Source: Cytophagales bacterium (GTDB lineage Bacteria > Bacteroidota > Bacteroidia > Cytophagales > Spirosomataceae). Taken from it: a DNA stretch of 64,000 nucleotides. Below, one piece after another: positions 13,920 to 62,756 of the stretch. Position numbers and translations under genes: made by a program. The stretch's first letter is position 1. Each line of letters opens with the position of its first letter. The notes under the pieces were generated by a model. The model was given only the letters and a program-made list of their open reading frames with translations. It searched no databases and was not told the origin of the DNA. The stretch lies in assembly GCA_004292855.1 (NCBI GenBank), contig RDXN01000049.1, forward strand, positions 21,760 to 85,759. The letters are read 5' to 3'.

Positions 13920-14741
13920 ATGAAATCGCCCCTTCTCATCATCCTCGTTATCATTAGCACCACTGCCCTAGGTTATGCCGGTCGCCAACCGATCATGGCC
14001 GCCCTCGGCGTCGACACCACGACAACGTTCACGATCTGGCAATACACCGCCTACCGGGGGTTCTGGAATTTGTTGCTACCGGCTCTGGTGCTTGCCCTGC
14101 TCCACGGCCCGCGCCGGGTGTTCGACGAACTCGGCTGGAATGCCCCGGTACTGAAGGGATTGCTGGCGGGCTTCGTCATCACGTTGCCCATGCTGGTTGG
14201 GTTTGCGATTATGTTCGCGCCCGTTGATATGCCGTTGAACAAGATTTTGCTCAAATTTTACACCGGCTCGTTTTGGGCCGGACTAGCCGAAGAGACCTTC
14301 TACCGGGCGTTTTTGTTCGGGCAGTTGTACCGGCACGGGCGGGTTCCGTTCTGGTTGGCAGCCACCGCGCAGGGTCTTTTCTTTGGAATGGCTCACTTGT
14401 ATCAGGCGCAGGACATCCTACCCGCGCTCGGCATTTTTGCTATCACCTCAATGGGGGGCGTTTGGTTCGCATGGCTTTGGGTGAGCTGGCGCAATTTGTG
14501 GGTGCCGGTGGTAGTCCACATCCTGATGAACGCGTGGTGGGGCCTGTTCGCCGTCGACAATACGGCCCTGGGCGGATGGGTGGCCAACGGGTGCCGCGTG
14601 CTGACCATCGCGTTGTCGATCTGGCTCACGATCCGCGAACTTCGGAAGCAAGGCCGGACTGCGTGGGTGTGGCGCGAAGCAGTGCCTGCCAGCCCTCGTA
14701 TGCCCGATGCGCGGCTTCAGACTGCTCATCCGGTTCTATAA
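13920..14741 (+). CDS. CPBP family intramembrane metalloprotease (CAAX protease/Abi)
   Basis: EExxxR motif (GLAEETFYRAFLFG), FxxxH (FFGMAHLY), and second H (VVVHILMNAWWG). Confidence 0.75.
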   Translation: MKSPLLIILVIISTTALGYAGRQPIMAALGVDTTTTFTIWQYTAYRGFWNLLLPALVLALLHGPRRVFDELGWNAPVLKGLLAGFVITLPMLVGFAIMFAPVDMPLNKILLKFYTGSFWAGLAEETFYRAFLFGQLYRHGRVPFWLAATAQGLFFGMAHLYQAQDILPALGIFAITSMGGVWFAWLWVSWRNLWVPVVVHILMNAWWGLFAVDNTALGGWVANGCRVLTIALSIWLTIRELRKQGRTAWVWREAVPASPRMPDARLQTAHPVL

Positions 14742-16156
14742 TCCGCTCGTGATGAATGAGTCGGTGCAGGTGGGCTAGATCTGTAAAAAGGCCCGCCTGC
14801 AAACCAGCCAAGAACCCGGCTCCCTGCGCCGACACATCGGGGTTGCCCTGATTCACAACCCGTTTTCCCATCAAGTCGGCTAGAAATTGCAACACGAACC
14901 CGTTACTTGTGATGCCGCCATTCACCATTAGTTCGGACAGCGACACGCCCGTATCACCTTCCATTGCCACAATCACGTCCTTGATCTGGTACACAATCGA
15001 CTCCAAAGCCGCCCGCACAAGGTGGCTTTTGGTCGTTCCGAAGGTCAAGCCGTGTACCGATGCCCGGCGGTCCATTTGCCAATGGGGCGCACCCAATCCG
15101 CTGAAGGCTGGTACGAGATACACGCCCCCGTTGTCGGGCAGGGCGTGGGCTAGGGCTTCGGTTTCGTGGCTTTCGGCAAACAGGTCGAGCGCGTTTTTGA
15201 GCCATTCGACGGTGGCCCCGCACGAGACAATCACCCCTTCGAGGGCGTAATCAACCGAGGGGCGGTCCCGCCCGTCTTCCCGGCTCCAGCCAATCGTCGT
15301 CACCATGCCCCGCCCCCACTGGCTTTGGGCCGATGTTCATCAAAATAGAACAGCCCGTGCCGAGCGTAGCTTTGGCCGAACCGGGCGCAAAACAACCCTC
15401 GCCAATCAGGGCCGCGTGCGAGTCGCCGATCATGGCCCCGATAGGCAACGGGCGGTCGAGCAGTCCACCAAACGTTGTTTCACCAAAATAGGCCGACGAT
15501 GACTTGATTTCAGGCAGGTTCAGCCCCGTCAGGCCAAAGCGGTCGAGCAGGTCGGTGTCCCAGGAAAGCGTTTCGAGATTGAAAAACAGGGTTCGCGACG
15601 CGTTGGTGTGGTCGGTGGCGTAACTCGCGCCGTTTGTGAGTCGGTACAACAACCACGTGTCGACCGTACCAAAAAAAGCGTCACCCGCTCGAATGGTCTC
15701 ACCCACTGTCGGGACGTTTTCGGCCAACCAAATGAGTTTGGTTCCCGAAAAGTAAGGGTCGATAAACAGGCCGGTGCGCTGCCGTACAAGTGGCTCAAGG
15801 CCCTCGTTTTTAAGTCGTTCACAAATGGCAATGGAACGTTTGCACTGCCAGATAACGGCCCTGTGCAGGGGTTGGTCCGCCCGGTTCCAGACCACGAACG
15901 TTTCGCGCTGATTCGAGATACCCCCCACATGCAAGTCGGCCACATTGCCCCCACCCGCTCTGAACGCACTCAGGCATTCGCGCACCGAATCGACAACGGT
16001 CTGGTAAATGCCGTCGGGGTCTTGCTCCACGAAACCTTCACCAAAATAATGAGTCGTGAGCGGCACCGAGGCCCGGCAAACCACGTGCCCGTTTTTGTCC
16101 AGAATGAGCGTTTTGGTGCTGCTCGTACCCTGGTCGATGGAAAGGATATAATTCAT
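14626..16156 (-). pseudogene. glpK: glycerol-kinase-like FGGY carbohydrate kinase, frameshifted
   Basis: N-part (15251..16156) and C-part (14626..15306) are in different frames; GlpK motifs DQGTSSTK, NQRETFVVW, DPYFSGTK, GTVDTWLLYRLT, TDHTNASRT; junction in GCCCCGCCCCCAC run at 15307-15319. Confidence 0.8.
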
Positions 16157-16167
16157 TGGCTTTAAAA

Positions 16168-16279
16168 TAACCGTTGAAGCCAACGGCAATGGATAAAAAG
16201 TCCCTGCGGGACTGCGCTGATCTAGTTTTGCAGTCCCGCAGGGACTTTCCACATATTGCCGTTGACTTCAGTCAACGGT
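16168..16279. terminator. triple-hairpin element; central perfect 19-bp stem followed (minus-strand RNA) by UUUUUAU
   Basis: AAAGTCCCTGCGGGACTGC / GCAGTCCCGCAGGGACTTT at 16196-16247, flanked by CCGTTGAAGCCAACGG and CCGTTGACTTCAGTCAACGG hairpins. Confidence 0.6.
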
Positions 16280-17243
16280 TCCTAGAGCTAGCTTTGTCAA
16301 TAATCACGGCCAACAAAATCACCCCTCCTTTAACCACCTGTTGCCAGAATGGCGAGACATTGAGCAGAACCAGCCCGTTGTTCAGTACACCGATGATGAT
16401 GGCCCCTTGCACCGTACCCAACACACTCCCACGCCCGCCCGACAGCGAGGTGCCGCCGATAACGACAGCCGCGATGGAGTCGAGTTCGTAGCTCGTGCCC
16501 GCGTTCGGTTGGGCCGAGTCGAGCCGCGCCGTGACCAGCAGGCCCCCCACGGCCCCCCACGCCCCGGCAATGAGACCGTACGTTTCACCCCTTCCACGTT
16601 GACGCCGGACAACCGGGCCGCACTCTCACTGCCCCCAATGGCGTAGATGTAGCGACCCAGCCGGGTTTTATCGGTCAGGAAAACGGCACTGGCCACCACC
16701 ACCGACATCCAAACCGGCACCGGAATACCCAGCAGCCAGCCCGTGCCGAGGTAAGTGAACGAATCGCCGAGGCCCGTGATTGGAAAACCGCCTGTCCAGA
16801 GCATCGTCAGGCCTCGCGCGATGGTCAGCATGGCGAGCGTTGCCACAAACGGTGGCAGGTTGAACCGAGTGATGGCCCAGCCGTTGAACCAGCCTAGCGC
16901 AGAGCCGGTGAGCAGCCCCGCCAACATGGCCCCCAGCAGGGTGAAGCCGATGAACAAATCGGCGTTTTCGAGCGGGATGCCATTGCGGAACAGGCCCGCC
17001 GTGATGGCCCCCGCCAACGCCAGCACCGACCCCACCGATAGGTCAATGCCGGCAGTAAGCACCACGAGCGTCATGCCGGTCGAGATACAAACGTTGACCG
17101 AAATTTGTCGCAGGACGTTCCATAAGTTATTTACAGTCAGAAACTTATTTGACAACAGGCTAATGCCTAGGCAAAGCACAAACAACGCAATGAGCGACTG
17201 AAAGCGGGCCAGTGAGGGTTTAGGAGAGAGAGTTAGTTGCATA
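16272..17243 (-). pseudogene. rbsC: ribose-type ABC transporter permease (RbsC family), disrupted by frameshift/deletion
   Basis: N-part (to about 16590) and C-part (16272..16550) are in different frames; the conserved ...[11 protein letters not shown] and [51 protein letters not shown] segments overlap at the junction. Confidence 0.8.
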
Positions 17244-17250
17244 GTGATGT

Positions 17251-17357
17251 ATTGAGTGATTGAGCGAATGACGGTCCGCCGTCGCGGTGATTGAGTGAAC
17301 CATCCGGCAGACACTCAATCACCGCGACGGCGGACCGTCAATCGCTCAATCACTCAT
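17251..17357. repeat. 45-bp inverted repeat (one mismatch), 15-nt loop, between rbsA and rbsC
   Basis: TGAGTGATTGAGCGAATGACGGTCCGCCGTCGCGGTGATTGAGTG / CACTCAATCACCGCGACGGCGGACCGTCAATCGCTCAATCACTCA; right arm overlaps the last codons of rbsA. Confidence 0.9.
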
Positions 17358-18872
17358 TGATTTAGTTATGGCGGCCTTCAGTAATACCTCGTCGGTGGCT
17401 TGAGCGATGGGAATATTTGCAGTGAGTTGGCCTTCAGACAGGACCAGAATCCGGTCGGCGAGGGCGAGTAGTTCGGGAATCTCGGAGGAGGCCACGAGGA
17501 TGCTCATGCCCTGATCGGCTAATTGACGGATGAGCGCGTATAACTCGTTTTTGGCGTGTACGTCGATACCCCGCGTGGGTTCGTCGAGCAGCAGCAGACT
17601 GGGTTTTGTTGCCAACCATTTCGACAGCACGACTTTTTGTCCATTGCCCCCGCTCAGGTTGCGCACGGGGGTACGAACTGAGGGCGTTTTGATGTGCAAA
17701 TCCGTTACGTACTGCTCGGCGAGGGCCGTTTCTTTAGCCCGGTTCAACACCCCAGCCGTTTCGATAGAAGCCAGGGCGGTTAGGCTGATGTTGGTCTGCA
17801 CGTCGAGGTCGAGCAGCAGTCCATCGCGCTTGCGGTCTTCCGGCACGAGGGCCATGCCTGCCCGGATTGCCTGGGCGGGATTTTTGATCTGCACCACTTG
17901 TCCGTTCATGCGCACGGTCCCGTTCTTGGGTGTGGAGTGCAGCCCAAACAGGGTTTCCAGCAGTTCAGTACGGCCCGCGCCCATCAGCCCAAACAGGCCT
18001 ACAACCTCCCCTTTTTCAACCGTGAGAGAAAGGTTTTTCAGTACATTATCGCCCCGTCGTACCGGGTGGGATAGGCTCAGATTTTCCACGGCTAACATGG
18101 CCTCAACATCAGCGTCCTCCTTTTGGCTTTTGGGTTTTTCGCGCTGCCGAGCCACTAAATCGCGGCCCACCATTGCCCGAATCAGGTGGTCGTGGGTCAT
18201 GTTGGTCATTAGGCCCTCCTCCACTGATTTGCCGTCGCGCAGCACCACGTAGCGGTCGGCAATGGTGAAAAGTTCGTCGAGTTTGTGGGAGATATAAACG
18301 ACCGCTTTTCCCCGCTTGCGGAGGTCACGGATGATACCGAACAAGACCGCCACCTCGCTGTCGGAAATGGCCGAGGTGGGTTCGTCCATGATGAGTACGT
18401 CGGCATCGTTCAGTAACGCCTTCGCCATTTCGACCACCTGCTGTTGTCCCACTTTCAGGTCGCCCACGAGCGTGTTGGGGGCGAGGTTCAGGTGTAAATC
18501 GGCCAGCAGGTTGGCGGTTTGTTGGCGCATGGCCGGGCGGTCGAGCGTGCCCAGGCGGGTGGTCAGTTCGCGACCCAGAAATACGTTTTCGGTGATGCTC
18601 AGGTATGGAATCAGGTTCAATTCCTGATGAATAATGGCTATTCCGTGGGCCTAAGCCTCGCGCACCGATGCAAACCGAACGGGTTTTTCGTTCAGATTCA
18701 GTTGCCCCTCATAATCGGCAATGACGCCCGACAGGATTTTCATCAGGGTCGATTTGCCCGCGCCGTTCTCACCGATGACCGCCGTGACCTGCCCTTTTAA
18801 AAAGGACAAACTGACGTTGTCCAAGGCCGTGACTCCTGCGAATTTTTTGGTTATGTTGTTGGCTGTCAGCAT
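17346..18872 (-). pseudogene. rbsA: ribose-type ABC transporter ATPase (RbsA family), interrupted by in-frame TAG
   Basis: 73-aa N-fragment with Walker [10 protein letters not shown] ends at TAG (18651-18653); the same frame continues AHGIAIIHQELNLIPYL... through both ABC domains (LSGGNGQK signature). Confidence 0.8.
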
Positions 18873-18879
18873 AGTTTTA

Positions 18880-19002
18880 AACCACAGAGTTCGCGGAGTT
18901 TTTTGTCATCCCGACGCAGGAGGGATCTATTCTGTTTAGAGCCAAGTTTAGTGTAGGCAAGCTAGATCCCTCCTGCGTCGGATGACAAAAAACTCTGTGG
19001 TT
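18880..19002. repeat. REP/MITE-like element copy 3, extended form with AACCACAGAGTT flanks
   Basis: AACCACAGAGTT...TTTTGTCATCCCGACGCAGGAGGGATCTA ... TAGATCCCTCCTGCGTCGGATGACAAAAAACTCTGTGGTT. Confidence 0.9.
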
Positions 19003-19618
19003 AAAAAACTTGTATCGGAATCACACTCAACTCACCGACTCGCAAATGCGCCCGATTCAGTTCCACTGCCCCGACAAACCTGATTTTCCGACCGGGTTTG
19101 GCATCGCTCCGCAATCCCGGCACCACGCGCTTGCGGATGATGTCGTTCAACTCAGCAGCCACACTGTTGAGGTCGGCGGTGTTGGAGAATTCGGTGATCT
19201 GAATCAAGCCCGACGCATCGCGGGCGGCATTGCTGTAGATGTACTCGGTTGCCAGTCGGGCAGTTGCGCCAGTGGTTAGTTGCACGGTAACGTCGGTCTC
19301 GCCAACCGTCGATACCACGCCCTCGCCCTTCACCAGGAAGTATCGGATGTTACCAATGCCCAGCGCGTGGGCGTGAGCGTCGAACGCCTTATTTTTATCG
19401 GTTTTCAGTTGCGCCAATAAGCTCGACAACTCCACTGCCCGCTCTGCACCCGTTGGCAAAAGTTTATTGGTCCAGAACGTTTCGGCGTAGCGAGCCGGGT
19501 CGAATTTGCCCAATGCGCCAGCCGCCCGCACTTCGCTTAGAGGCCGCAAATACACCGAATTATAGCCAATCAACCCAACCAGAGCCAGCCCAATACCGTA
19601 CTTCATTCCTTTGTTCAT
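19001..19618 (-). CDS. DUF2291-like periplasmic lipoprotein (ABC-sugar-transporter-associated)
   Basis: start MNKGMKYGIGLALVGLIGYN; start codon overlaps the binding-protein stop (ATGA). Confidence 0.55.
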   Translation of the reverse strand: MNKGMKYGIGLALVGLIGYNSVYLRPLSEVRAAGALGKFDPARYAETFWTNKLLPTGAERAVELSSLLAQLKTDKNKAFDAHAHALGIGNIRYFLVKGEGVVSTVGETDVTVQLTTGATARLATEYIYSNAARDASGLIQITEFSNTADLNSVAAELNDIIRKRVVPGLRSDAKPGRKIRFVGAVELNRAHLRVGELSVIPIQVF

Positions 19619-20532
19619 GGCTTGTCGGGGGTTTCGTAATCGGCAATATTCGCTTGGGTAATCAACTCGACGGCAACCGGAATCCGTTGGGCGAAGTCGC
19701 GCTTGCCGTTGAGCCATTGATCGGCGAATTGGGCGGCTGTTTTGGCCATCGTTTGGGGCGATTGCAGGCCCGTTGCCCGAATCTTGCGGTCGCGGATGGA
19801 TGTCATCACATCGTCGGCCCCGTCGAAGCCAAACACCTTGACAATCTGCACTTTACCCGCCGACACGAGGGCCTGATACGCGCCCAACGCCATTGCATCG
19901 TTGCCGCAAAACACGGCGTCGATGTCGGGGTGGGCCTGCAAAATCGACTCCAGCACGTCCATTGCCTTGTTCCGGTCAAAATCGCCCGATTGTTGGGCCA
20001 CCATCTTCAGGCCGGGGTAGCGGTCCACCACGCTGTGAAATCCCTTCGAGCGGTTCCAAGTGTTGTTGTCGCCCACCATGCCCAAGATCTCGACGTAGCT
20101 GCCCCGGCGGTTCATCGTTTGCACGAAATACTCGCCAATGGCTACGCATCCCGAATAATTATCGGACAAAATCTGCGACGTCGCCACGTCCGACGCGTTC
20201 ACCTCGCGGTCCATGCAAAACACCGGCACGCCCGCTTCTTTGGCCTTCGCCACGTTCACAATCGACCCCTCCGAATCGGTCGGATTCAGCAAAATCGCCC
20301 CAAACCCCGACACGATGGCGTTCTCAAAATGGTCAGCTTCGAGAGCCGGGTTATTCTGCGAATCGAAGATTTTGGCCTCATAGCCCAGGCGTTTGGCCTC
20401 AGCCGCTGCCCCCTCGGCCAACACCACAAACCAGGGGTTATTGAGTGTCGAGACGATCACAGCCATCTTTTTGGGCTGATCCGTGTCTGTTTTGCCGGTG
20501 CAGGAGGCCAGAAGCAGGAGGAGCCATATCAC
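19615..20532 (-). CDS. sugar ABC transporter substrate-binding lipoprotein (RbsB/periplasmic-binding-protein type 1)
   Basis: lipobox LLLLLASC; RbsB-like fold motifs (VIVSTLNNPWFVVLAEGA, VFCGNDAMALGA, GFDGADD). Confidence 0.85.
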   Translation of the reverse strand: MIWLLLLLASCTGKTDTDQPKKMAVIVSTLNNPWFVVLAEGAAAEAKRLGYEAKIFDSQNNPALEADHFENAIVSGFGAILLNPTDSEGSIVNVAKAKEAGVPVFCMDREVNASDVATSQILSDNYSGCVAIGEYFVQTMNRRGSYVEILGMVGDNNTWNRSKGFHSVVDRYPGLKMVAQQSGDFDRNKAMDVLESILQAHPDIDAVFCGNDAMALGAYQALVSAGKVQIVKVFGFDGADDVMTSIRDRKIRATGLQSPQTMAKTAAQFADQWLNGKRDFAQRIPVAVELITQANIADYETPDKP

Positions 20533-20585
20533 CCGTTGGCTTTAGCCAACGGATAAGGGGAATGAGATCATTTCATTATTTTTAA

Positions 20586-21992
20586 TCAAGGCATCACCGT
20601 CAGAATCACCCGTTGATAGCGCGTCAGGGCGGGGGTTCCGTTGTCGGTTACGGCCAGAATAATGTGCATGGTTTCGGGAACGAGGGCTTTAGGAACCACC
20701 AGGGTTGCTACTTTTTGGTCTTTGTTTTTGATGATAGGCAGGCGGGCACTCTCAAACGTCCCGGCTTCGCGGTAGTAAATCCATTCGTATGTCAGGGCAT
20801 TACCGTCGGGGTCGGAGGAGCCGTCGGCACTGAGCGTGACGGTTTCGCCACTTTTGACCCGGATTTCGTTTGCATGCCCCAGTTTGGCAACCGGCGGGTG
20901 ATTGGCTTCGTTGTAGGGCTTAACCGTCCAGTCGATGCGGGCGGCAAAATCGTTTTGGTAATGCTGCCGCCAACGCCAGATCGTTGCCTTATTGCTGTCG
21001 TAATAATTTCCGTCCTTACCCTTTACCTGATCTTCGGCGTCGGACCAGATTGGACGGGTTTCGGGTTCCGAAAACCACTTGCGCGTGCGGGGCGTATACA
21101 GCTCGTACCGACCGCCCCACCCACCCCAGTCCGGCCGTTCGGGTACACTCAACCCGTTCACAATCAGGTTAAAAAAGCTGGGTGTGTCGCCCTCCATAAT
21201 ATAAACCGTGTGCGGATGCTCGGCCCCCAACGGCCCGTGGTTCTTACGAATATTGGCGTCTAGCCACGCATTGTTGACGATGCTAGAATCGGGACCAGCG
21301 AACCCCGGCGCAAACGGAAACACGTCGCCACTGATGCCCCGCCAGGTCGAATATTCGTAGGCTCCCCGGTCGTGGATGCCAGGGCTAACAATAAAAAACA
21401 GGTTCGGAAACGTTTTGCGGAGCCAGGGGCCGCTATCGTCCTGATCGGAGATCGTGTAGACCCGCAGTTTAGCCACAAACCGGTCCAGTTCGTCAGGCGT
21501 GCGGGTTTGGCGCACTTTCCAGAGAGCTTGCGCCAGGCAGTTGGCCCCGCCCCAAACCGGCACCCAAACCGGGCGCGGGTCGGCCTTGTCGACCACCGAA
21601 ATAATGTGTTCGGAGCCTTCCGAATCGTTGCCCGGCCCCACGGCGTTCATGCCATATTTGGCAACACTTGGTTTGATAATGCGTAACAGAGCCTCTGTTT
21701 CGGGATAGCCTTTTTCGTGCAGCAACAGGTTGTTCCGAACCTTGCCATAAGCCTCCACAATCCGCCGAATTCGCTCCGGTGCCACCCGATTCCGTTGATG
21801 CACCGAGGTTGTGGCAATCAGACCTTCTACGTCCCATTGGTTCACGTAGGTCAGAAACCGCACCATCGACTGCGCGTCGTCCGGCTCATTTTCGATATCG
21901 GTCAGCACCAGCACCCGCACTTTTTGAGGTGTTTGCTGCGCAGTGGCAAGAAGGGGGAGAAAGGTCAGGAGAAGCAGGAATACGTGTTTCAT
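20586..21992 (-). CDS. secreted DUF1593 protein (nucleoside-hydrolase-like N-domain + Ig-like C-domain)
   Basis: signal peptide; [32 protein letters not shown]-terminal beta-sandwich. Confidence 0.7.
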
Positions 21993-21997
21993 GGCTA

Positions 21998-23449
21998 TTA
22001 CGGCACGACCGTCACAATCACCCGTTTGTAGCGGGTGAGGGCGGGGGTGCCTTTGTCGGTTACTTTCAGGATAAAATGAAGCGTTTGCGAGGTGGTTACG
22101 GTCGGCGCAATGGGGCGGGCTTCGTAGATGTTCGAGACGAAGTTTTGGTAATTTATCGTCCCCGAATACGTCCCGGCTTCGGGGTAATGCATCCAGCGGA
22201 AACTCATCGAATCGCCATCGGGGTCGGTCGATTCGGAGGCTCGTAAATAGAACGTTTCGCCCGATTTAACCGTCAGATTTTCGGGGTGCGACAGGCGCGG
22301 AACGGGTGGGTGATTGGCCTCCTGGTACGATTTCGTACACCAGTCCATGCGGGCGGCAAAGTCGTTCTGAAACTCCGTGCGCCACCGCCAAATCGTTGCC
22401 CCAATGCTCTTGGGGGCTTTTTCCGTTTTCTCGGTCGATGGTCCCATAGCAAACCGAGGAGCTGCATAGATCGAATCAGCCGAATTGGTCCAGATAGGGC
22501 GGGTTTCGGGGTCGTCTTTGGGGGCACCTTGCGGGCGAAAGCGCGTTGTGGCTACGCTGGTGGGTTGTTGAAGCACATACCGACCACCCCACCCGCCCCA
22601 ATCCGGGTGTTCGGGGGCGTTCAACCCGTTCGGAATCAGGCCCAAAAACGAGGGAGTATCGCCCTCCATACCAAATGCCACGTCGGGGTATTGCGCCCCC
22701 AGTGGGCCATGCCCCTGCTGAATGTTCTGAGCCAGCCAGGCATTCGTGGCATACTCCGGTTGGGTTCCGGGTTCGCTCGTGTTAATGCCCCGCCAGGTCG
22801 CGTGTTCGTAGCCGTAACCGGGACTGACAACGAAAAAGACGGTCGGGAAATTCTTGCGAATCCAGGGACTGGTGTCGTCCTGATCCGAGATCGTGTAGAC
22901 GCGTAGTTTGCGGTAGAGTTGTTCGGCCTGTTGCGAGGTGCGCGTTTTTTGAATTTTCCAGAGGGCCTGCGCCAGCGTGTTCGGCCCGCCCCATACCGAC
23001 ACCCAGAGAGGTCGTCCGTCCAGCTTTTCGAGTTGGCGAATAATCCATTCCGAGCCTTCGGAGTCGTTGCCCTCGCCCACGCCCGTTAGGCCATATTTAG
23101 GCAAGCCTTTTTTGATTACGGCTTTCAGGGTTTGGGCAGTCGGGTAGCCGAGTTCGTGTTTGAGCAAATTAGGTTGGACAAGTCCGTAGGCGTCCACAAT
23201 CTTGTGGATGGTTTCGGGAGCTACCCGCGTTTGCAGGTGAATCGACGTGGTGGCAACGAGTCCTTCAATATCCAACTGATTGGCATAGGTCAGTAACCGC
23301 ACCAGCGACTGCGAATCGTCCGGCTCGTTCTCCATGTCGGTCAGCACCAACAACCGTGTTTTTTGGGCAGATGCCAAGAATGGGAAGAGGGTAAATGAGA
23401 GTAGGAGCAGTAGTTTCATAGTTTTAGATGGGAACATTGGGAACCGCAA
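21998..23449 (-). CDS. secreted DUF1593 protein, tandem paralog
   Basis: same architecture and motifs as 20586..21992 ([31 protein letters not shown]). Confidence 0.7.
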
Positions 23450-23476
23450 CGGCGGACCGTGCGGATGACGCGGACA

Positions 23477-23570
23477 TTTTTTGTCATCCCGACGCAGGAG
23501 GGATCTACTTCCTTGACGCTCAAATTGAATGTAGGCAAGCTAGATCCCTCCTGCGTCGGGATGACAAAAA
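23477..23570. repeat. REP/MITE-like element copy 4
   Basis: canonical arms; preceded by GGAACCGCAACGGCGGACCGTGCGGATG. Confidence 0.9.
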
Positions 23571-23571
23571 G

Positions 23572-24525
23572 TCATCCGCGATCTAATAATTCCAGTGCCA
23601 CCCGTTCAATGCCCGTTTCGGATAACCCGTAATGGGCGAAAATCTCCAGTTGCGAACCCGTAACGGTGTATTCGTCGGGGATGCCCATGATGCGGAAGCG
23701 GTTCCGAAAGCCATTTTGCAACAGAAACGACGCACACCCCTCCCCCAAGCCACCATACACGCTGTGTTCCTCGACCGTGACGATTGGGCATCCATCAGCG
23801 GCCACCATCGCCAGCAAATCATAGTCGAGCGGCTTGATCGTGTGCATACTCACCACCCTTGCCCGGATGCCCTGCTCGGTCTCCAACCGACGAGCCGCCT
23901 GCAAAGCCGGATAGACCGTTTCGCCGGTTGCAATGAGCGTCAGATCCTCGCCTTCGCGCACCACCCGACCTTTGCCAAACGCAAATTCGCGGTTAGTTTC
24001 GGAGAGCAACGGCATGGTTTTCTTGCCGAAGCGCAGGTATACGGGGGTGTTCATTTGAGCCGCCAGCCGAACGGCCTGCTCGGTCTCGAAATTGTCGGCG
24101 GGGGCCACGATAGTCAGGTTGTGAACGGCACGAAGAGCTGCCAAATCGTGCAGGCTGTGGTGGGTTGAACCCAACGCGCCGTAGCTGACGCCCGCGCTGA
24201 TACCCACGAGCCGGACCGGATTGTTGGAGTAACAGACATCGGTTTTGATCTGCTCGAACGAACGGGCCGTCAGGAAACACGCGGGCGATACCGCAAACAC
24301 GTTTTTCCCCGCCGACGCCAGGCCAGCCGCTACGCCCACCAGATTCTGTTCGGCAATACCGATTTCGACGATCTGCTTCGGAAATCGCTGCCCAAACGGG
24401 ACGAGTTTGCCCGACCCCCGCGAGTCGCTCGTGACAACGAGCAGGTTTCGGTCGGTTTCGGCCAGGGTTTGGAGCGTGGCCGAGAATATGTCGAGGTTAG
24501 CTTTTTCCATATGTTTTTCAACCAC
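23572..24525 (-). CDS. transketolase, C-terminal (pyrimidine-binding) subunit
   Basis: 317 aa; transketolase pyrimidine/C-terminal domain motifs (IGIAEQN, GSTHHS). Confidence 0.9.
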   Translation of the reverse strand: MVEKHMEKANLDIFSATLQTLAETDRNLLVVTSDSRGSGKLVPFGQRFPKQIVEIGIAEQNLVGVAAGLASAGKNVFAVSPACFLTARSFEQIKTDVCYSNNPVRLVGISAGVSYGALGSTHHSLHDLAALRAVHNLTIVAPADNFETEQAVRLAAQMNTPVYLRFGKKTMPLLSETNREFAFGKGRVVREGEDLTLIATGETVYPALQAARRLETEQGIRARVVSMHTIKPLDYDLLAMVAADGCPIVTVEEHSVYGGLGEGCASFLLQNGFRNRFRIMGIPDEYTVTGSQLEIFAHYGLSETGIERVALELLDRG

Positions 24526-24528
24526 AGT

Positions 24529-24622
24529 TTTTTTGTCATCCCGACGCAGGAGGGATCTACTCGGTTAGTGTTCAAGTCGGGGGTAAGCAAAGTAGATCCC
24601 TCCTGCGTCGGGATGACAAAAT
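24529..24622. repeat. REP/MITE-like element copy 5 (AACCACAG / CTCTGTGGTT flanks)
   Basis: canonical arms. Confidence 0.9.
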
Positions 24623-24631
24623 ACTCTGTGG

Positions 24632-25666
24632 TTAATCGTTTAACTCCAGTTTTGCAAAGAAATCGTTGAACATCAGGCCCGTATCCAACTGTGTGTATAC
24701 CCGAATCGGTCGCCCTTTGTGGTTGTGGGCGTACACCCCAGCCGCGTTGATGCGCGGGGCCTGCCGAACCACATACGTACTCGACGAAGGGTCGGCCTCG
24801 AACGACGATTGCAGGGCCGTGAGCAACACCAGCGGACTATCGCCCAAAATGTACGTTTCACCAATGTTCAAAAACGACTGAATCCGGGTCATCAGGCTCT
24901 CCAGCGTTCCGGCCAGATACGCCCCCGTTTTGCCACGCGGCTTCACCTTCGTGAGCAGTTGGGCATACGAAATCAGGCACTGCCGGTACGCGTTTCGGGG
25001 AATCTGCCACAACGCCACCGCCGACCGATTGAACACCGCCCGTGCAGCCGCCTGATCAATATTCAGGTTGTATTCGACCTCGGTATACCCCGGTGGGGGC
25101 GTGGCCAACTCAGTATATTCAGGACCGCCGATCCAGATAAGGGTCAGTTTATCAGCTATTTGCGGATTGGTCAATACCGCCGAAGCGATTTCGGTAAGTC
25201 CAGCCCCGCAGACCACATAAAGCGGTAGTTTGGTATCGGTCCGCAAAGCTTCCTGAATAATGAAGTTGACGGCCTCGTTTTTTACGGGCGTGCTGTCGTT
25301 CACCATTGCCGTGTTCGACCCGGCAAAAACCGGAATCGGTTTGGTCACGTTCATGATACTCAGCACCTCTCGCGCTTTTTTGGCAGCATTGTCGGCCTGC
25401 GTGGTGGAGCGGTCGAAGCCATCGCCGACGCGCAGGTGCGACCCGATTATGCCCCGCACCTCCACCGACGGCGACATCAGCAAATGCGCCAACTGAAACA
25501 GTCCGTCGGGGTCGCCACTGAAGTCGTTATCCACGATCACCCGCATCCGAGGTTGCACCATTGCCAGACCAGTGGGTTGGGCAACGGCCCCAAACGATGC
25601 CAACCAGATGATGGAACTTAGCCAAAAGACCAGTTTAGGAGCTTGTTCGATGGTCTGTTTTGTCAT
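24632..25666 (-). CDS. inosine-uridine-preferring nucleoside hydrolase family protein, probably secreted
   Basis: VIVDNDFSGDPDG aspartate cluster; N-terminal hydrophobic signal; start ATG lies inside the terminus of repeat copy 6 (ATGACAAAA = MTK). Alternative start at MRVIV is possible. Confidence 0.65.
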   Translation of the reverse strand: MTKQTIEQAPKLVFWLSSIIWLASFGAVAQPTGLAMVQPRMRVIVDNDFSGDPDGLFQLAHLLMSPSVEVRGIIGSHLRVGDGFDRSTTQADNAAKKAREVLSIMNVTKPIPVFAGSNTAMVNDSTPVKNEAVNFIIQEALRTDTKLPLYVVCGAGLTEIASAVLTNPQIADKLTLIWIGGPEYTELATPPPGYTEVEYNLNIDQAAARAVFNRSAVALWQIPRNAYRQCLISYAQLLTKVKPRGKTGAYLAGTLESLMTRIQSFLNIGETYILGDSPLVLLTALQSSFEADPSSSTYVVRQAPRINAAGVYAHNHKGRPIRVYTQLDTGLMFNDFFAKLELND

Positions 25667-25750
25667 CCCGAAGCATGAGGGATCTACTCCGCTAACGCTC
25701 AAGTTGAGAGTGGACAAGCTAGATCCCTCCTGCGTCGGGATGACAAAAAA
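25657..25750. repeat. REP/MITE-like element copy 6 (left arm degenerate: GAAGCATGAGGG)
   Basis: read directly. Confidence 0.85.
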
Positions 25751-25773
25751 TTGTGTTACAGTATTTCGCTCTT

Positions 25774-26598
25774 TCATTCTTTCGCTCTTTCACCCAACTC
25801 CTCCAACGCCTGTTGATACTGATCGTAACTAGGCACGCCGTGATGCCATTTCAGTTGATTTTCCATGAAACTCACGCCCTTGCCTTTCACCGTGTGGGCA
25901 ATCACCAAACTTGGCTTCCCTGTTGCAAACGGCAGCGCATCGAACGCTTCTTGCAGGGCCGTGAAGTCGTGTCCATCCACGTGCCGGACCGCCCAACCGA
26001 ACGCTTCAAACTTCTGGTCGAGCGGGTCGGTGCTGCATACGTCGGCGGTGGGGCCGGTAATTTGCAGGGTGTTCTTGTCGACAATGGCGCAAAGGTTGTC
26101 GAGCTTGTAGTGCGACGCCAAGAGGGCCGCTTCCCAGTTAGAACCTTCGGGTAGTTCGCCGTCGCCCATGAGCGTGAACACGCGGTAAGCGCGATCATCC
26201 AATTTAGCCGCGAGAGCCGTTCCCACGCTTAACGACAGCCAGTGCCCCAGCGAACCGGTGTTTTGCTCCACGCCATACACTTTGCGCGTGGGATGCCCAA
26301 TGTAGTGGGAGTTGTACCGGCAAAGTGTTTGCAAGTCAGTTTCCGGGAAAAAGCCCAGGTCGGCCAGTACCACATACAGGGCCTCGACCGTGTGGCCTTT
26401 GCTCTGAATATACCGGTCGCGGTCGGGCGAGGTAAAGGTGTCGGGACCAACGTTCAACACGGTATTATAGAGCACGTTCAGGATGTCGATGCACGACAGA
26501 CTACCGCCCGTATGCCCAGCCCCTGCCCCATAAATGTATTGGAGGATGTTCCGGCGGTATTGCGTCGATTTCTGGGCTAGTTCGCTAACGGTTAGCAT
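25774..26598 (-). CDS. transketolase, N-terminal (TPP-binding) subunit
   Basis: 274 aa; GHTGGSLS, GDGELPEGSNWEA TPP-binding motifs. Confidence 0.9.
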   Translation of the reverse strand: MLTVSELAQKSTQYRRNILQYIYGAGAGHTGGSLSCIDILNVLYNTVLNVGPDTFTSPDRDRYIQSKGHTVEALYVVLADLGFFPETDLQTLCRYNSHYIGHPTRKVYGVEQNTGSLGHWLSLSVGTALAAKLDDRAYRVFTLMGDGELPEGSNWEAALLASHYKLDNLCAIVDKNTLQITGPTADVCSTDPLDQKFEAFGWAVRHVDGHDFTALQEAFDALPFATGKPSLVIAHTVKGKGVSFMENQLKWHHGVPSYDQYQQALEELGERAKE

Positions 26599-27490
26599 GT
26601 TCTGTATGGGAGGGCTTTATGAAACCCTGTTGAGCCAGCCACTCGGCAAATCGCTCGATCCACCCATCCGAGGGCAAATTCTGTTTATTCATGCCGAACC
26701 CATGCCCCCCTTTTGCGTACAAATGGAGTTCCGTAGGTTTCTTAGCCGCAAGCCATGTGTTGTACAAGTCCACGCTGTGTGGAGCCAGATTCAGTTGATC
26801 GTCGGAGGCACAAACCAGGAACATCGGGGGCGCATCGGTTGGCAAGTTGCCCTGCATGGCTGCCGGGAAAAAAGCGTAAATGGGGGCCGCAAACGCTGGT
26901 TTATTGTCGGCATTGTAGCCAAAAACAGCCCCCGCTGTCACTGTCCCCCCCGCCGAAAAACCCATAATTCCGATTTTGTTTGGATCAACGCCATACGTAG
27001 CCGCGTGTTTGCGGACGTAGGCGATAGCCGCGCGACCATCGGCCATCGACAGGGGAATTGTGGCCTTGTTTTCGGCGTCCCACTCCTGTTTGCGCGGCCC
27101 GTCGATGCCCGCCATCATGTCGGCAAACGGGTCGTCGGTGTTGATGCGGGCCGTCCGGTATTTTAACACAAACGCCGTGACACCCTTTTTTGCCAGACAT
27201 TTCGCCACGTCATTACCCTCACTATCAATGGACAGAAAGTGAAACCCTCCGCCCGGACAAATCACCACCGACGTCCCCGTTGCCAGAGCCGGATCAGCCG
27301 GGAACACCGTCAGCGTTGGGTTGACGACGTTATAAACCGTCATCAGGTTAATGGCGTTTTTGTTGTTCTTTTTCTCGGTCCAGTTCCAGGTTTCCGAGCC
27401 GGGTGCGGCCCCGTCGTAGATTCGCACCTCGGTTTGTTGCGCCTGAGCCAGCCCAGCCAGCAATACGCCAAGTAGTAGTAGTCGTGTTTT
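26585..27490 (-). CDS. secreted alpha/beta-hydrolase esterase
   Basis: signal peptide; GFSAGG nucleophile elbow, HGFG C-terminal His. Confidence 0.7.
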   Translation of the reverse strand, partial: KTRLLLLGVLLAGLAQAQQTEVRIYDGAAPGSETWNWTEKKNNKNAINLMTVYNVVNPTLTVFPADPALATGTSVVICPGGGFHFLSIDSEGNDVAKCLAKKGVTAFVLKYRTARINTDDPFADMMAGIDGPRKQEWDAENKATIPLSMADGRAAIAYVRKHAATYGVDPNKIGIMGFSAGGTVTAGAVFGYNADNKPAFAAPIYAFFPAAMQGNLPTDAPPMFLVCASDDQLNLAPHSVDLYNTWLAAKKPTELHLYAKGGHGFGMNKQNLPSDGWIERFAEWLAQQGFIKPSHTEHANR

Positions 27491-27505
27491 CATATTGGTA
27501 TTCAT

Positions 27506-28918
27506 TTATGCCGTATGCTGATAGACGTCCCAACCCATATAATTCTCGAACGCTTCGCGCAAAACGCCCGCCGTTCGCGAAGCATTCATGACCACGTGAT
27601 GCTCAAACCCATTGCGGCACACGTACTGCATCAGGTTTTGTAGGTTGTCGATTTTGGCCACCGCCCGGTTGCCGAAGGTATTGAGCGGGTCGTCGGTGAG
27701 GACCCCCTCGCCAATGTACGCCTTCATGATGCCTTTGGGGTCGTCGGTGCTGATGCGCCCAAACGTGAGGGGCGACGCGGGCGTGCGACCGTCCAACGCG
27801 CCATAAGTGTTTTCTTCGCCCACCGTCGTGCCCAGAATCGGTGCCGTACTCATCTGTATATCAGGCAGAAATGACTTGGCCCAGTTGCCGCAATGAAACA
27901 GCACACACTTATTTTCGTCGTCGGCGTAGTTGTTGTTCCAATCGACCAACGCGCTTGGCGAACCAGACGCGAGTTGCATGGCGTACATGCTCAACGTACC
28001 CGTCACATCGACCTCACACGCGCTCGGCAGCATGTTCTCGCTCATGATGCTCATGTTGGTGCAGACGTTGCAGCCGTAATTCTGTTGCAACGAGGTCCAG
28101 CACTGAATAGCCTTGGCATCAAGCGCGTGTTCGGCCATGAACTCGGCCAGTACCACATCGAGCTTGGCAATCTGCACCAGTCGGTCGTCGGGGGTGCGGC
28201 CTGTGGGGGCGTAGGCCCGGATGGTTTCTAACTTATTTTTTACGGACTGATCGTTGATAGTCAGCTTGTTGGCGTTGCCCAGAATCTTCGACAGATCGAC
28301 CGTTACCACCGAAATTCCGTGCCGTTGCAGGATTTTCTCGCTGTAACGCACGGTGTTGAACGCCCCCGGTCGCGCCCCCACCGCCCCAATCCGCACCGTC
28401 CGCAGGCCGCGCACCACCCGGCAAACAGCTTTGAAATGCAACAGATCCTGGGCAAAACTGGGGTCCGACGGATGCACCACATGCTTGGTTGTGAGCGAGT
28501 ACTTGATACCAAACTGATACAGGTTGTTGCACACCGAAATCTTGCCACACCACGCATCGCGCCGACGCGCCACGTCCATCCGGTTCAGATCGTCGGGGTA
28601 CGCCTGAACAAGCACAGGTACGTCTAACCGAGCGAGTTTGAGGGTTTCGGCCACGCCTTTTTCATCGCCGAAGTTGGGCAAAACGACCACCACGCTCATG
28701 ATTTCGTCGGCATGACGCCGGAAGAGTTCGGCGCATTTTTGGGCCTCCTGAAACGTTTCGACGCCCCCCAGTTTGGTTGCCTGCTCGTCGAGCATGATCG
28801 GTTTCAGACCCGCTTTCTGAAAGGCGTCGAGCAAATCGGCGCGGCATTCGCCAACGAGTTTGTCAGGGAAAAAGTCACGGTTGCCGATGATTACACCGAC
28901 GGAAATGGGGTTGGTCAT
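27506..28918 (-). CDS. L-fucose/L-arabinose isomerase family protein (COG2407-like)
   Basis: 470 aa; fucose-isomerase C-domain-like region (FHCGNWAKSF, VDWNNNY). Confidence 0.55.
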   Translation of the reverse strand: MTNPISVGVIIGNRDFFPDKLVGECRADLLDAFQKAGLKPIMLDEQATKLGGVETFQEAQKCAELFRRHADEIMSVVVVLPNFGDEKGVAETLKLARLDVPVLVQAYPDDLNRMDVARRRDAWCGKISVCNNLYQFGIKYSLTTKHVVHPSDPSFAQDLLHFKAVCRVVRGLRTVRIGAVGARPGAFNTVRYSEKILQRHGISVVTVDLSKILGNANKLTINDQSVKNKLETIRAYAPTGRTPDDRLVQIAKLDVVLAEFMAEHALDAKAIQCWTSLQQNYGCNVCTNMSIMSENMLPSACEVDVTGTLSMYAMQLASGSPSALVDWNNNYADDENKCVLFHCGNWAKSFLPDIQMSTAPILGTTVGEENTYGALDGRTPASPLTFGRISTDDPKGIMKAYIGEGVLTDDPLNTFGNRAVAKIDNLQNLMQYVCRNGFEHHVVMNASRTAGVLREAFENYMGWDVYQHTA

Positions 28919-29194: not shown

Positions 29195-29232
29195 CCAATT
29201 GGCCTCACGGCCATGCCGGATACTATCCGGCA
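29195..29232. repeat. family-B repeat, single arm (TTGGCCTCACGGCCATGCCGGATACTATCCGGCATTAC)
   Basis: matches each arm of the 41731-41824 inverted pair; contains 10-bp-arm palindrome ATGCCGGATA/TATCCGGCAT. Confidence 0.8.
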
Positions 29233-29949
29233 TTACAGGTGCTTCCGTTTAATGCTTTTTAAATAGATGACGCCGTATTTCCAGACCAGTATAAGCCCGT
29301 ATTTTGTGCCCTTCCAGAACCCCAAATGTCGATATTTGATGCGGTTCGATTCGAGTAACGATTGCCACATGCCCGCGCTAATACCCTGTTCGGCGCAACG
29401 GCTCATGTCGAGGTCGATGATGCGGACCTGACTCCGGCGCAGGAACAGAATCAGGTTCAGTTCATAGTCCGACATGGCTCGGAGTTGGGTGTCGTAGCGG
29501 AAGTTCTCGAACACCCGCTGGTTGTAGAAAGCGGCTTGATGGTGGATGAGATTACTAACCAAAATGGCGTCGGAAAAGGTGCCGATGAAGCGTCCACTGC
29601 CCGTTTGCAGGCTGTGTCCGGCCAGCAAATCGAGGTCGTTGGTGAGCAGTGGGGCCACTTTTTCCAGGACGCCGGGTAGAATCACGTCGCCCGCGCAGAT
29701 GAACAGAATCCAGTTGCCTTTGGCGCGGTCCAGGCCCTTGTTCATGGCGTCGTAAATGCCGGAATCGGGTTCGCTGATCCAGCGCACGAGCGGGAAGTTC
29801 TGCTCTCGAAGCCAGTTGGCGGTTCCGTCGGTGCTGTTTCCGTCGATAATCAGATGCTCAACCGCCATACCCGTTTGGGCCTGCACACTCGCGATGGTTT
29901 CGGGCAGCAGGTGACGGGCGTTGTAGGTGACGGTGATGACGGAAATCAT
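29233..29949 (-). CDS. glycosyltransferase family 2
   Basis: VITVTYNARHLL, IIDGNSTDGT GT-A motifs. Confidence 0.8.
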   Translation of the reverse strand: MISVITVTYNARHLLPETIASVQAQTGMAVEHLIIDGNSTDGTANWLREQNFPLVRWISEPDSGIYDAMNKGLDRAKGNWILFICAGDVILPGVLEKVAPLLTNDLDLLAGHSLQTGSGRFIGTFSDAILVSNLIHHQAAFYNQRVFENFRYDTQLRAMSDYELNLILFLRRSQVRIIDLDMSRCAEQGISAGMWQSLLESNRIKYRHLGFWKGTKYGLILVWKYGVIYLKSIKRKHL

Positions 29950-36624: not shown

Positions 36625-37749
36625 CTACTTCATTTTCAGCAGCTCACTGCCGGCCAGTAGATACGCGCCCGTCCCGAAGTTCTGCCAACTGTCTTTGTCG
36701 GCGGGTTTGGGGTCGAAACCGATGTTTTGCACCCAGCCAATTTTGCCCGTCTCCTGCTGACACTGAGTCAGCGCATCCCAGGCTTTCAGCACGGCGGGCT
36801 GGTAGGTTGCCTTGTCTAACAAGCCGTTGTTGATGCCCCAAGCCAGGCCGAACGTGAAGAAACCACTGCCGCTCACCTCGCCGTGCGGGAACGTTTCGGG
36901 AGCCAGCAAACTAGTGCGCCAGAGGCCGTCGGCGGGTTGCAGGTCTTTAATTCGGGCGGCCATATCCTTGAACAGTTTCTCGTAGAACGGGCGATTTTTG
37001 TAGTTCTTGGGCATGTCTTCCAGCAACAAAGCCAACCCGCCCAGCACCCAGCCGTTGCCCCGCGACCAGAAAATATGCTTGCCGTTGGCTTCTTTGCGGT
37101 CGCTATCCTTGCCCGCCCACAAGAACCGGACATCCCGCGCAAACAGTTTATCGTCCTTGTTGTAGAGTAGGTCGTAGGTCTGCATGTAGTATTTGTGCAT
37201 CTGATCGAGATAGACCGGGCCACTCCTGGCCGGGTCTCTTTTCTGTTTGGCGTAAACCGTCAGCACAGGCGGGGCCATGAAAAGCGCGTCGCACCACCAC
37301 CACAAAATGCGCTGATCTTTATCGGGAATGCCCACGCGCCATTCGTGGGGTTTGTAGAGGTGCTGGGCGATGATGCTGTCGGTTGGAACGGTATTGACCG
37401 TTTTCTCTTTGAGCGAGTTGAGGTACAGATACGAGTAGCAGATCGCCATATCGTCGGCGTGGTAGAACCGCTCGTAGGGTTGCCAGTTGTTGCGATTGGC
37501 CATGCCAGTGAGGGCATTCAAAAAAGCGTTGTTGCGAGTCGATTTGTGCGCCCGAACAACGCCCGTGTAGTAGGCTCCATTGGTCCAGTCGGTGGGGGCT
37601 TTGGCGAAAATGGGGTTGGCTTCCTGCCAGGCCAACGCCCGAAGCATCGACTGCTCAATGGCTTTTTTATCAGGCAAATTGCCCGGTTTCCACGACGACA
37701 GGCAAAGTATCAGGACGGCAAAAATTGGTAGTATTAGTCTGGTTTTCAT
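36625..37749 (-). CDS. GH88/GH105 unsaturated glucuronyl/rhamnogalacturonyl hydrolase
   Basis: signal peptide; YteR/UGL six-hairpin motifs ([19 protein letters not shown]). Confidence 0.7.
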
Positions 37750-37801
37750 GTAATTAATAAATGATTGGAGTTGCCTGAAATGTGAGTAATCGGACGATTT
37801 T

Positions 37802-37879
37802 GTTTTTGTCATTCCGAGGTACGAGGAATCTCACAATCAGGCAACTGTAAGATTCCTCGTACCTCGGAATGACAAAAAC
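37802..37879. repeat. REP/MITE-like element, short variant copy 7 (GTCATTCCGAGGTACGAGGAATCT)
   Basis: perfect 29-bp arms with matching substitutions. Confidence 0.85.
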
Positions 37880-41623: not shown

Positions 41624-41730
41624 TTTCAGGGTAATGTAGTATTGAAAAATCTTGTCGTATGTACTTAGCGTTGGGTGCATTTCACTCTTGTGTTTTGCTC
41701 AACCGTCGCCACTTAAAGCAACCTATATTG

Positions 41731-41824
41731 GCCTTACGGCCATGCCGGAAAGTATCCGGCACTACAAAAGTCGCCCCTTCACGTAATGCCGGATATTTTC
41801 CGGCATGGCCGTAAGGCCAACAAC
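41731..41824. repeat. family-B inverted repeat pair (about 38-bp arms, 17-nt loop)
   Basis: ATTGGCCTTACGGCCATGCCGGAAAGTATCCGGCACTAC / GTAATGCCGGATATTTTCCGGCATGGCCGTAAGGCCAAC. Confidence 0.85.
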
Positions 41825-59697: not shown

Positions 59698-59702
59698 CAT
59701 TT

Positions 59703-62738: not shown

Positions 62739-62756
62739 CGGCGGACCGTGCGGATG

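Follow-up and report, generated by a model that had tools for sequence, protein, structure and literature searches.

The two subunits of split transketolases are encoded by genes (tktN and tktC) that normally lie side by side. In a 64,000-nucleotide (nt) stretch of a metagenome-assembled genome (MAG) of a Cytophagales bacterium of the Spirosomataceae (NCBI assembly GCA_004292855.1, contig RDXN01000049.1, positions 21,760 to 85,759; hereafter the window), the two genes are separated by 1.25 kb, made up of a gene for a secreted protein of the IUNH family and two copies (A and B) of a ∼92-nt palindromic repeat. A third copy (C) lies downstream of tktC. An analysis made from the nucleotide sequence alone (the original prediction) had placed these genes and the three repeats to within 1–2 nt (Table 1) and had proposed a cassette insertion mediated by, or later colonised by, the repeats. 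The locus thus raises the question of whether the repeats brought the hydrolase gene or came after it.

The explanation that we consider probable is that the gene order is old, with a native hydrolase gene wedged in between the transketolase genes, and that the repeats are later colonisers, one of which (copy A) lies in the region coding for the signal peptide. This evolutionary history is ordinary but tidy, and it cautions against taking every gene with repeats on both sides for a cassette. The most interesting features of the locus are the in-frame repeat within a signal peptide and the link between secreted proteins of the nucleoside hydrolase (NH) fold and an apiose-type transketolase pathway.

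Gene order and origin of the hydrolase gene

A TktN scan with one genome per species returned 80 loci, of which 77 hold both subunit genes. In 76 of these 77 the two genes are direct neighbours, in line with the original prediction, and the gap between them is estimated at −30 to +223 nt. This adjacency spans Bacteroidota and also Clostridia, and a fucI-like gene stands directly upstream of tktN in nearly all related loci. The sole exception is Spirosoma telluris (L001), which has the same IUNH gene between the subunit genes. Since the subunit genes are adjacent in all the other loci, the hydrolase gene is a derived insertion relative to the deep ancestral state. The adjacency itself is a gene-order trait and not a functional requirement.

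Among close relatives, the order tktN-IUNH-tktC, or IUNH-tktC where a contig end or a deletion removes tktN, is found in at least eight genomes (L001, L081/82, L083, S. flavus L084, L085-87, S. aerolatum L088, L093 and the window). The IUNH start and the tktN stop codon overlap as ATGA in L081/82 and S. flavus, where tktC follows 6–14 nt past IUNH. No repeats of the 92-nt family are present in L081 or L084 at any of the three junctions (designated A, B and C after the copies that occupy them in the window). S. telluris has the same order but unrelated palindromes in its spacers. In the closest relative, L083, whose IUNH protein is 92% identical, the IUNH stop codon overlaps the GTG start of tktC. 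Comparative synteny therefore dates the order tktN-IUNH-tktC as most probably older than the repeats.

These comparisons bear directly on the proposal of a mobile cassette, in which the hydrolase gene was inserted via its flanking repeats as a composite unit bounded by miniature transposable elements with inverted repeats (MITEs), the repeat providing the 5′ untranslated region and the start codon. Such a cassette would account for the repeats on both sides of IUNH in the window, for an annotated start that coincides with the terminal ATG of a repeat, and for the adjacency of the subunit genes nearly everywhere else. We nevertheless regard it as highly improbable, given that the order is present without 92-nt repeats in L081/82, L084 and L001, that L083 has copy A and no copy B while other species have different repeat subtypes, and that the gene is native in composition and has orthologues throughout the Cytophagales. 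Of the two routes offered by the original prediction, later colonisation by the repeats thus stands and repeat-mediated insertion does not, the same order having been found without repeats and with an independent ATGA start in L081/L082 and L084, an observation that the original prediction had itself named as speaking against its proposal.

The composition of the gene was compared with that of its neighbours, as the original prediction had proposed, and carries no signature of a recent cassette. Its GC content is 0.557 and its GC content at third codon positions is 0.678, against 0.62–0.745 in neighbouring genes, and its divergence in codon usage is among the lowest in the region. S. rigui, Fibrella, Adhaeribacter and Arcicella have orthologues with 70–85% identity at other loci, and in L013 the orthologue lies 5 kb downstream of tktC. 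A foreign origin was rejected on these grounds, and IUNH is best described as a native Cytophagales gene, apparently not part of any recent repeat-bounded cassette. The region encoding the mature protein is under strong constraint, with a ratio of nonsynonymous to synonymous differences per site (pN/pS) of 0.10 in comparison with L083.

The repeat family and its copies at the junctions

The repeat family has 11 copies within the window. Each copy consists of a TTTTGTCATCCCGACGCAGGAGGGATCTA arm, a variable loop of ∼35 nt and a TAGATCCCTCCTGCGTCGGGATGACAAAA arm, giving two 28-nt inverted arms and ∼92 nt overall with the termini TTTTGTCAT...ATGACAAAA. Each arm holds a small palindrome of its own (ATCCC...GGGAT, or ATTCC...GGAAT in one subfamily). 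Pairing in the 28-bp stem amounts to 98.8% over 12 aligned copies, against only 43–55% in slid-register controls, and compensatory double changes are found at five stem pair positions (18 cells). The RNA hairpins predicted for copies A, B and C have free energies between −56 and −87 kcal/mol, and their z-scores versus shuffled sequences lie between −7 and −14. Every copy sits 2–25 nt past a stop codon, most of them between genes on the same strand, and 10 of the 11 copies in the window are intergenic. Terminal inverted repeats with arms of at least 28 nt and a length of ∼92 nt are traits of MITEs, while two inverted units resembling repetitive extragenic palindromic (REP) sequences, arranged as a hairpin and present in 11 copies in 64 kb, are traits of REPINs. 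On architecture alone, the class of the repeat is REPIN-like and equally MITE-like.

No Rfam family matched in a scan of the whole window. A repeat census with a covariance model (R2), run over the window and the loci of its relatives, gave one to two matches per Spirosoma locus examined and essentially none in ∼45 other Bacteroidota loci, where only L038 (a short variant) and L021 (a weak match) stood out. The L038 variant (2459–2508), from a non-Spirosoma Bacteroidota MAG, is a 50-nt hairpin with the family termini TTGTCATTCCG...CGGAATGACAA that lies in the tktN-tktC spacer, nested in other palindromes, and its terminal motif may indicate a wider superfamily. A protein-database search with the repeat-encoded peptide gave no candidate, and a literature search returned nothing relevant on Spirosoma palindromic repeats, DUF1593, or apiosidase together with nucleoside hydrolase. 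The possibility that the repeats are intrinsic terminators was rejected, as no U-run comes after the hairpins on the coding strand and the stems run on into A-runs in either orientation; none of the terminator-like sites on the minus strand coincides with a repeat. A sigma-70 promoter scan gave nothing meaningful, and the sigma-70 model is in any case not applicable to Bacteroidota.

Copies A, B and C are 83–88% identical across 92 nt and each has a distinct relation to its flanking genes. Copy A is the one that is not intergenic. It begins about nine codons into the IUNH coding sequence, within the n-region of the signal peptide, and encodes 30 residues in frame. It is also the only one of the 12 aligned copies with stem mismatches, of which it has two; these make the hairpin less stable, and it is speculation that selection for translatability favoured them. 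Copy B is extended by outer arms (AACCACAG / CTGTGGTT), and the right arm overlaps the end of IUNH and provides its TAA stop codon (24632–24634). The GTG at 24525, which ORF finders take as the start of tktC, lies within an outer arm of the same copy; the start region was compared with that of L083, and the ATG at 24510 (MEKANLDIF) is the likelier start. Copy C is followed by a second, unrelated GC-rich palindromic motif, CGGTCCGCCGTTGCGG (∼23440–23478), ahead of the next gene. This motif is also present at junction C of S. flavus.

Other features of the spacers were noted in passing. In the copies at 18901–18992 and 24520–24633 the 92-nt core is enclosed by an additional pair of outer arms (AACCACAGAG ... 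CTCTGTGGTT), suggestive of a longer subfamily or of insertion within an earlier small hairpin. Unrelated palindrome families fill further spacers (17253–17356, 16175–16270, 23440–23478, 62733–62757 and 59589–59698) and reach the ABC-permease and permease-FGGY junctions; CGGTCCGCCGTYGCGG is found in one of them, and the arms of another are of the TGAGTGATTGAG type.

The distribution of the three copies among relatives differs from junction to junction. Copy A has an orthologue in L083 (717–812), with the same loop and the same two stem mismatches. One of its stem pairs (19/77) is C-G in the window and A-T in L083, a compensated change after the lineages split that suggests either that pairing is selected for or that copies have undergone gene conversion. 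Copy B is absent from the equivalent junction in L083, L081, L084, L087 and L093. The copy C junction is empty in L087 and L081 and holds a different subtype in L093. S. aerolatum and L093 carry different repeat subtypes, intergenic in position, at junctions A and/or C. Because L083 has copy A without copy B and other species carry other subtypes, the three copies are independent insertions of different ages into a pre-existing gene order. No clear target-site duplication was found when filled and empty versions of junctions A, B and C were compared, the T/A-run flanks diverging fast.

The repeats could alternatively have accumulated as functionless symptoms of pseudogenisation of the operon under relaxed selection, with IUNH perhaps no longer properly expressed. 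There are signs of damage, as seen by tblastn and frame translations. In the downstream block, the ABC ATPase gene has an in-frame stop near codon 74 (∼18651–18653), the permease gene a frameshift near 16571, and the FGGY kinase gene a frameshift near 15306 that splits it into two ORFs overlapping at 15251–15306. In the related metagenome contigs L085-87, a deletion joins residues 1–311 of the fucI-like protein to residues 205–269 of TktN (L085, 5042–6162), with loss of the esterase gene and most of tktN and retention of IUNH, tktC and Sde182, which suggests decay of the pathway in a close relative. Some palindromic element is moreover present in every sizeable spacer of the operon. On the other side, tktN, IUNH, tktC, both Sde182 genes and the isomerase and esterase genes of the window are intact ORFs, the mature part of the IUNH protein is constrained, as noted above, and the intact operons of S. 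flavus and S. aerolatum also have repeats at their junctions. The uptake and kinase part of the operon is either decaying in the window lineage or affected by local MAG errors, and we regard decay as an unlikely explanation for the presence of the repeats.

The start codon and the repeat in the signal peptide

The coding strand at the end of copy A reads ...GGG ATG ACA AAA CAG..., such that the ATG at 25666–25664 coincides with the repeat's ATGACAAAA terminus and opens the reading MTKQ.... The original prediction had recognised this ATG as the start of the hydrolase, and NCBI annotates the same start. The IUNH ORF stays open upstream across the whole of copy A, up to the ATG at 25777, which overlaps the TGA stop of tktN to form ATGA. 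This is the ancestral start arrangement, as in L081 and L084. L083 is equally open from its ATGA, and the form called there by JGI has 373 residues (MKNLSQLFVIPTKEGSS...GMTKIGYG...).

Nearly all of 120 listed homologues have a signal-peptide-like segment of ∼30–40 residues ahead of PRMRVIVDNDFSGDPDG, and a few shorter ones start at, or just ahead of, PRMRVIVDNDFSGDPDG. In the window, the signal peptide of the IUNH protein reads ...KLVFWLSSIIWLASFGAVA/Q. From these signal peptides it follows that the protein is exported and that translation has to start at or upstream of 25666. Either start gives the same mature protein after cleavage of the signal peptide.

Several properties of copy A argue for use of the upstream ATG. 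The window and L083 differ by 9 nt in length upstream of the repeat, with the frame preserved. The orthologous copies differ at 11 positions with a pN/pS of 0.29, and a run of five differences in the loop consists solely of synonymous changes at third positions. Stop codons interrupt the other two frames through copy A. A non-coding orthologous repeat pair (L081 versus L084) has acquired indels of 14 nt and 1 nt. Initiation in Bacteroidetes depends on low mRNA structure and an A at −3, and not on Shine-Dalgarno sequences (PMC6847099). The ATG at 25777 lies in an A-rich context with an A at −3 and has a computed opening energy of 3.2 kcal/mol, whereas the ATG at 25666 lies inside the 28-bp stem, has a G at −3 and has a computed opening energy of 10.6 kcal/mol.

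The repeats may instead have colonised the old gene order in such a way that copy A severed the ancestral start, with translation proceeding only from the MTK ATG of the repeat and the upstream ORF being fortuitous. Some of the evidence counts for this possibility and against use of the upstream ATG. The NCBI start is the repeat ATG, and the resulting 344-residue form equals the orthologues exactly in length and opens with a typical signal peptide in which MTK precedes the hydrophobic core. The 48-residue n-region of the 381-residue form may lead to poor export. About 60% of strand-reads of 92-nt copies are open, so that the openness of copy A is unremarkable. The synonymous excess rests on 11 differences (estimated p roughly 0.05–0.08), and both genomes go back to a single insertion event. 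The stem mismatches shared with L083 lie in the arm beside the ATG and cut the stability of the hairpin from −67...−87 to −56 kcal/mol, possibly as an adaptation for initiation. The wider reading has weak points of its own, in that the repeats have no definable target-site duplication and in that the three downstream lesions could be MAG assembly errors. Set against translation from the repeat alone are the position of its ATG in the stem, the retention of the ATGA coupling site in both the window and L083 together with a 9-nt indel that keeps the frame, the constraint on the copy A reading frame, and a second repeat MTK, in a GH88 gene, that is clearly no real start. On balance we lean slightly towards use of the upstream ATG, at least in part, as judged from sequence comparison and computed RNA structure. 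Initiation at the repeat ATG is possible and is not the best-supported reading, and a severed ancestral start with translation from the repeat alone seems to us rather unlikely.

The longest ORF of this GH88 gene (36625–37812) opens at the terminal MTK ATG of a short repeat copy (37804–37877), and the true start evidently lies 21 codons downstream. ATGs at repeat termini can thus mislead annotation throughout this genome, giving false N-terminal extensions.

We propose the following history for the locus. In the ancestor of a Spirosoma subclade, a native gene for a secreted NH-fold protein became wedged between tktN and tktC with tight overlaps (ATGA, GTGA), an insertion that breaks nothing because the transketolase subunits are separate polypeptides. 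Much later, ∼92-nt elements colonised the junctions singly and in different Spirosoma species independently. Because the IUNH start overlapped the tktN stop and the family lands 2–25 nt past stop codons, the copy that arrived past tktN fell in coding DNA, namely the n-region of the IUNH signal peptide, where it is in frame and open. Translation would be likeliest to begin at the ATG at 25777, coupled to termination of tktN, and to proceed through the hairpin to give a precursor of 381 residues, with the MTK ATG as an alternative or additional start. The 30 repeat-encoded residues would then be discarded with the signal peptide, and the insertion is tolerated because either start yields an identical mature protein. 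On the mRNA, the hairpins between cistrons probably behave like REP and Correia elements, which can affect the stability of transcript segments, their processing by RNase III or the coupling of translation. This regulatory effect, drawn by analogy, and the course of translation are the parts of the history that we infer, and the former too counts among the weak points of the proposal.

The operon, its sugar and known systems

Assignment of tktN and tktC to a split transketolase follows from their Pfam domains, Transketolase_N being encoded by one gene and Transket_pyr with Transketolase_C by the other. The nearest solved structure to the tktN product is the N-terminal component of a split-chain transketolase (6yak, E 1.8e-70). 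In the window the operon runs in the order fucI-like isomerase, esterase, tktN, IUNH, tktC, two Sde182-like genes, an RbsB-like ABC transporter with DUF2291, and FGGY kinase (Table 1). The fullest cluster among the relatives comprises a DeoR regulator, fucI-like isomerase, esterase, (Sde182-like), tktN, IUNH, tktC, Sde182-like, RbsB-like, DUF2291, ABC ATPase, permease and FGGY kinase. A 40-nt direct repeat, 90% identical between its copies (ATTGGCCTCACGGCCATGCCGGATACTATCCGGCATTACA; 29198–29237 and 41727–41766) and with a small hairpin inside, has one copy directly upstream of the fucI-like gene.

Table 1 Features of the transketolase-hydrolase locus, with positions in the window
Feature	Coordinates	Strand	Location	Assignment and remarks
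L-fucose-isomerase-like sugar isomerase (fucI-like)	27506–28918	minus	upstream operon gene	Pfam
Alpha/beta-hydrolase esterase	26585–27505	minus	upstream operon gene	Pfam
tktN	25774–26598	minus		Pfam PF00456 Transketolase_N, E 7.5e-42; N-terminal, thiamine-diphosphate-binding subunit of split transketolase
Repeat copy A	25658–25749		tktN-IUNH junction	begins 25 nt past tktN stop; ΔG −55.8 kcal/mol
IUNH-family secreted protein, long open reading frame (ORF)	24632–25777	minus		381 residues; Pfam PF01156 (IU_nuc_hydro)
IUNH, short form	24632–25666	minus		344 residues; NCBI-annotated (P0001, 'Cytophagales bacterium' MAG); start is repeat-terminal ATG
Repeat copy B	core 24531–24622; with outer arms 24520–24633		IUNH-tktC spacer	ΔG −74.6 kcal/mol
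tktC	23572–24525	minus		Pfam PF02779 Transket_pyr and PF02780 Transketolase_C; C-terminal subunit of split transketolase, with pyrimidine-binding and C-terminal domains
Repeat copy C	23479–23570		downstream of tktC	2 nt past tktC stop; ΔG −87 kcal/mol
Secreted Sde182 nucleoside-hydrolase-like protein 1	21998–23449; likely start ATG 23419	minus		PF07632, E ∼1e-110, and PF21027
Secreted Sde182 nucleoside-hydrolase-like protein 2	20586–21992	minus		PF07632, E ∼1e-110, and PF21027
Downstream block: RbsB-like binding protein, DUF2291, repeat copy (18901–18992), ABC ATPase, permease, FGGY kinase	14626–20541	minus		Pfam, NCBIfam

The two Sde182-like genes (encoding 468 and 483 residues) form a tandem pair with DNA segments that are 72–77% identical, detected as the direct-repeat families D3–D5. 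The pair (20586–23449) is a local duplication, and the direct repeats reflect this paralogy. Relatives have one to three Sde182-like genes, at varying positions. In the course of its history the operon has gained secreted-hydrolase genes at its junctions, with the esterase, the one to three Sde182-like genes and IUNH placed differently from species to species. Sde182 NH-like genes also accompany fucI-like, tktN and tktC genes in many Cytophagales loci (L002, L006–L008, L014, L037 and L041).

The IUNH protein belongs to a family of nucleoside hydrolases, to whose characterised members it is related only remotely. It matches PF01156 with 59.7 bits against a cut-off of 34.2, over model positions 1–247 of 297. 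The best match to a solved nucleoside hydrolase has an E value of 7e-4 over ∼100 residues, and the NCBIfam UriH model, with a cut-off of 450 bits, gives a score of 27. Canonical nucleoside hydrolases carry the N-terminal calcium- and ribose-binding fingerprint DxDxxxDD, and the corresponding Asp motif here reads VDNDFSGDPDG, which departs from it. The signal peptide and the sugar-operon context argue for a putative extracytoplasmic furanoside as the substrate.

The nature of the sugar is suggested by a D-apiose cluster of E. coli SE15 that is supported by growth assays (PMC13001218). The operon of the window and this cluster (L094, 572041–582988) share as their core a binding protein, DUF2291, an ABC transporter, an FGGY kinase (aplK) and a split transketolase (aptA/aptB), with identities to the E. 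coli proteins of 33–50% (AptA with tktN 50%, AptB with tktC 41%, AplK 39%, ABC 40%). The gene set of a D-apiose cluster is present in the window and its relatives, with the kinase, ATPase and permease disrupted in the window. Assignment of the operon to an apiose-type transketolase pathway is reasonable, though unproven, as 40–50% identity does not fix specificity, and the operon probably serves a furanose or pentose sugar, in a Spirosoma-type arrangement. The NH-like domain of Sde_0182 has been reported to be inactive on nucleosides and was proposed to be a furanose-binding module (PMC8910321); by analogy, it is plausible that the secreted NH-fold proteins of the operon are furanosidases or furanose binders. 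Their conservation beside an apiose-type transketolase pathway suggests the furanosidase role.

A bolder combination can be put forward, namely that this is a locus for apiose or another furanose in which the IUNH-like protein and the Sde182-like paralogues act as furanosidases that free the sugar from plant glycosides or pectins, and that the repeat in the signal-peptide region is truly translated and then discarded. We consider this joint reading doubtful as a whole. If true, it would give the NH fold a glycosidase role and mean that signal peptides in Bacteroidota are places where selfish DNA can insert in frame without harm. Whichever start is used, the copy in the signal peptide can be viewed as a natural case of a harmless insertion into a gene. 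The Spirosoma family as such, a REPIN/MITE-like family without an Rfam match, repeatedly targets the first ∼25 nt past stop codons and can mislead the annotation of starts, as with the MTK starts of IUNH and GH88.

Among known repeats, the family most resembles the REP/BIME and REPIN elements of E. coli and Pseudomonas, which are likewise short, high-copy extragenic palindromes with two inverted arms, internal palindromes and a hairpin of ∼90 nt, situated just past stop codons between co-transcribed genes and with a stem held by compensatory changes. It differs in its longer arms (28 nt), which end in T/A runs, in its Bacteroidota host, in its unrelated sequence and in having one copy within coding sequence. 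The Correia/NEMIS and ERIC elements are comparable as elements of ∼100–150 bp with terminal inverted repeats that lie beside genes, are co-transcribed with them and form long RNA hairpins, and in Neisseria the Correia/NEMIS hairpins are cut by RNase III, with changes in transcript levels (PMC10969869). Unlike the Correia/NEMIS elements, the Spirosoma repeats have no definable TA or other target-site duplication. For the copy within IUNH the closest parallel is with the Rickettsia palindromic elements (RPEs), palindromic repeats that lie within ORFs, in frame and without stops, and are translatable (PMC10969869). In the same way the ORF at 24632–25777 reads through copy A, as does its counterpart in L083. 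The Spirosoma example is a single case in a signal peptide, whereas RPEs are a genome-wide habit and affect the mature protein, and the Spirosoma element has a potential start codon of its own at its end.

At the level of the operon, the likeness to the D-apiose clusters of Pectobacterium and E. coli ST131 (PMC13001218) lies in the same set of binding protein, DUF2291, ABC transporter, FGGY kinase and split transketolase; the window has a fucI-like isomerase in place of the E. coli SDR pair and adds the secreted NH-fold proteins and the esterase. Sde_0182 of Saccharophagus degradans (PMC8910321) offers a precedent for secreted NH-fold proteins in a carbohydrate context, and two genes of its family, PF07632, are present here. 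The gene that intervenes between tktN and tktC differs from it in belonging to PF01156 and not PF07632, and in its Asp motif, DNDFSGDPDG.

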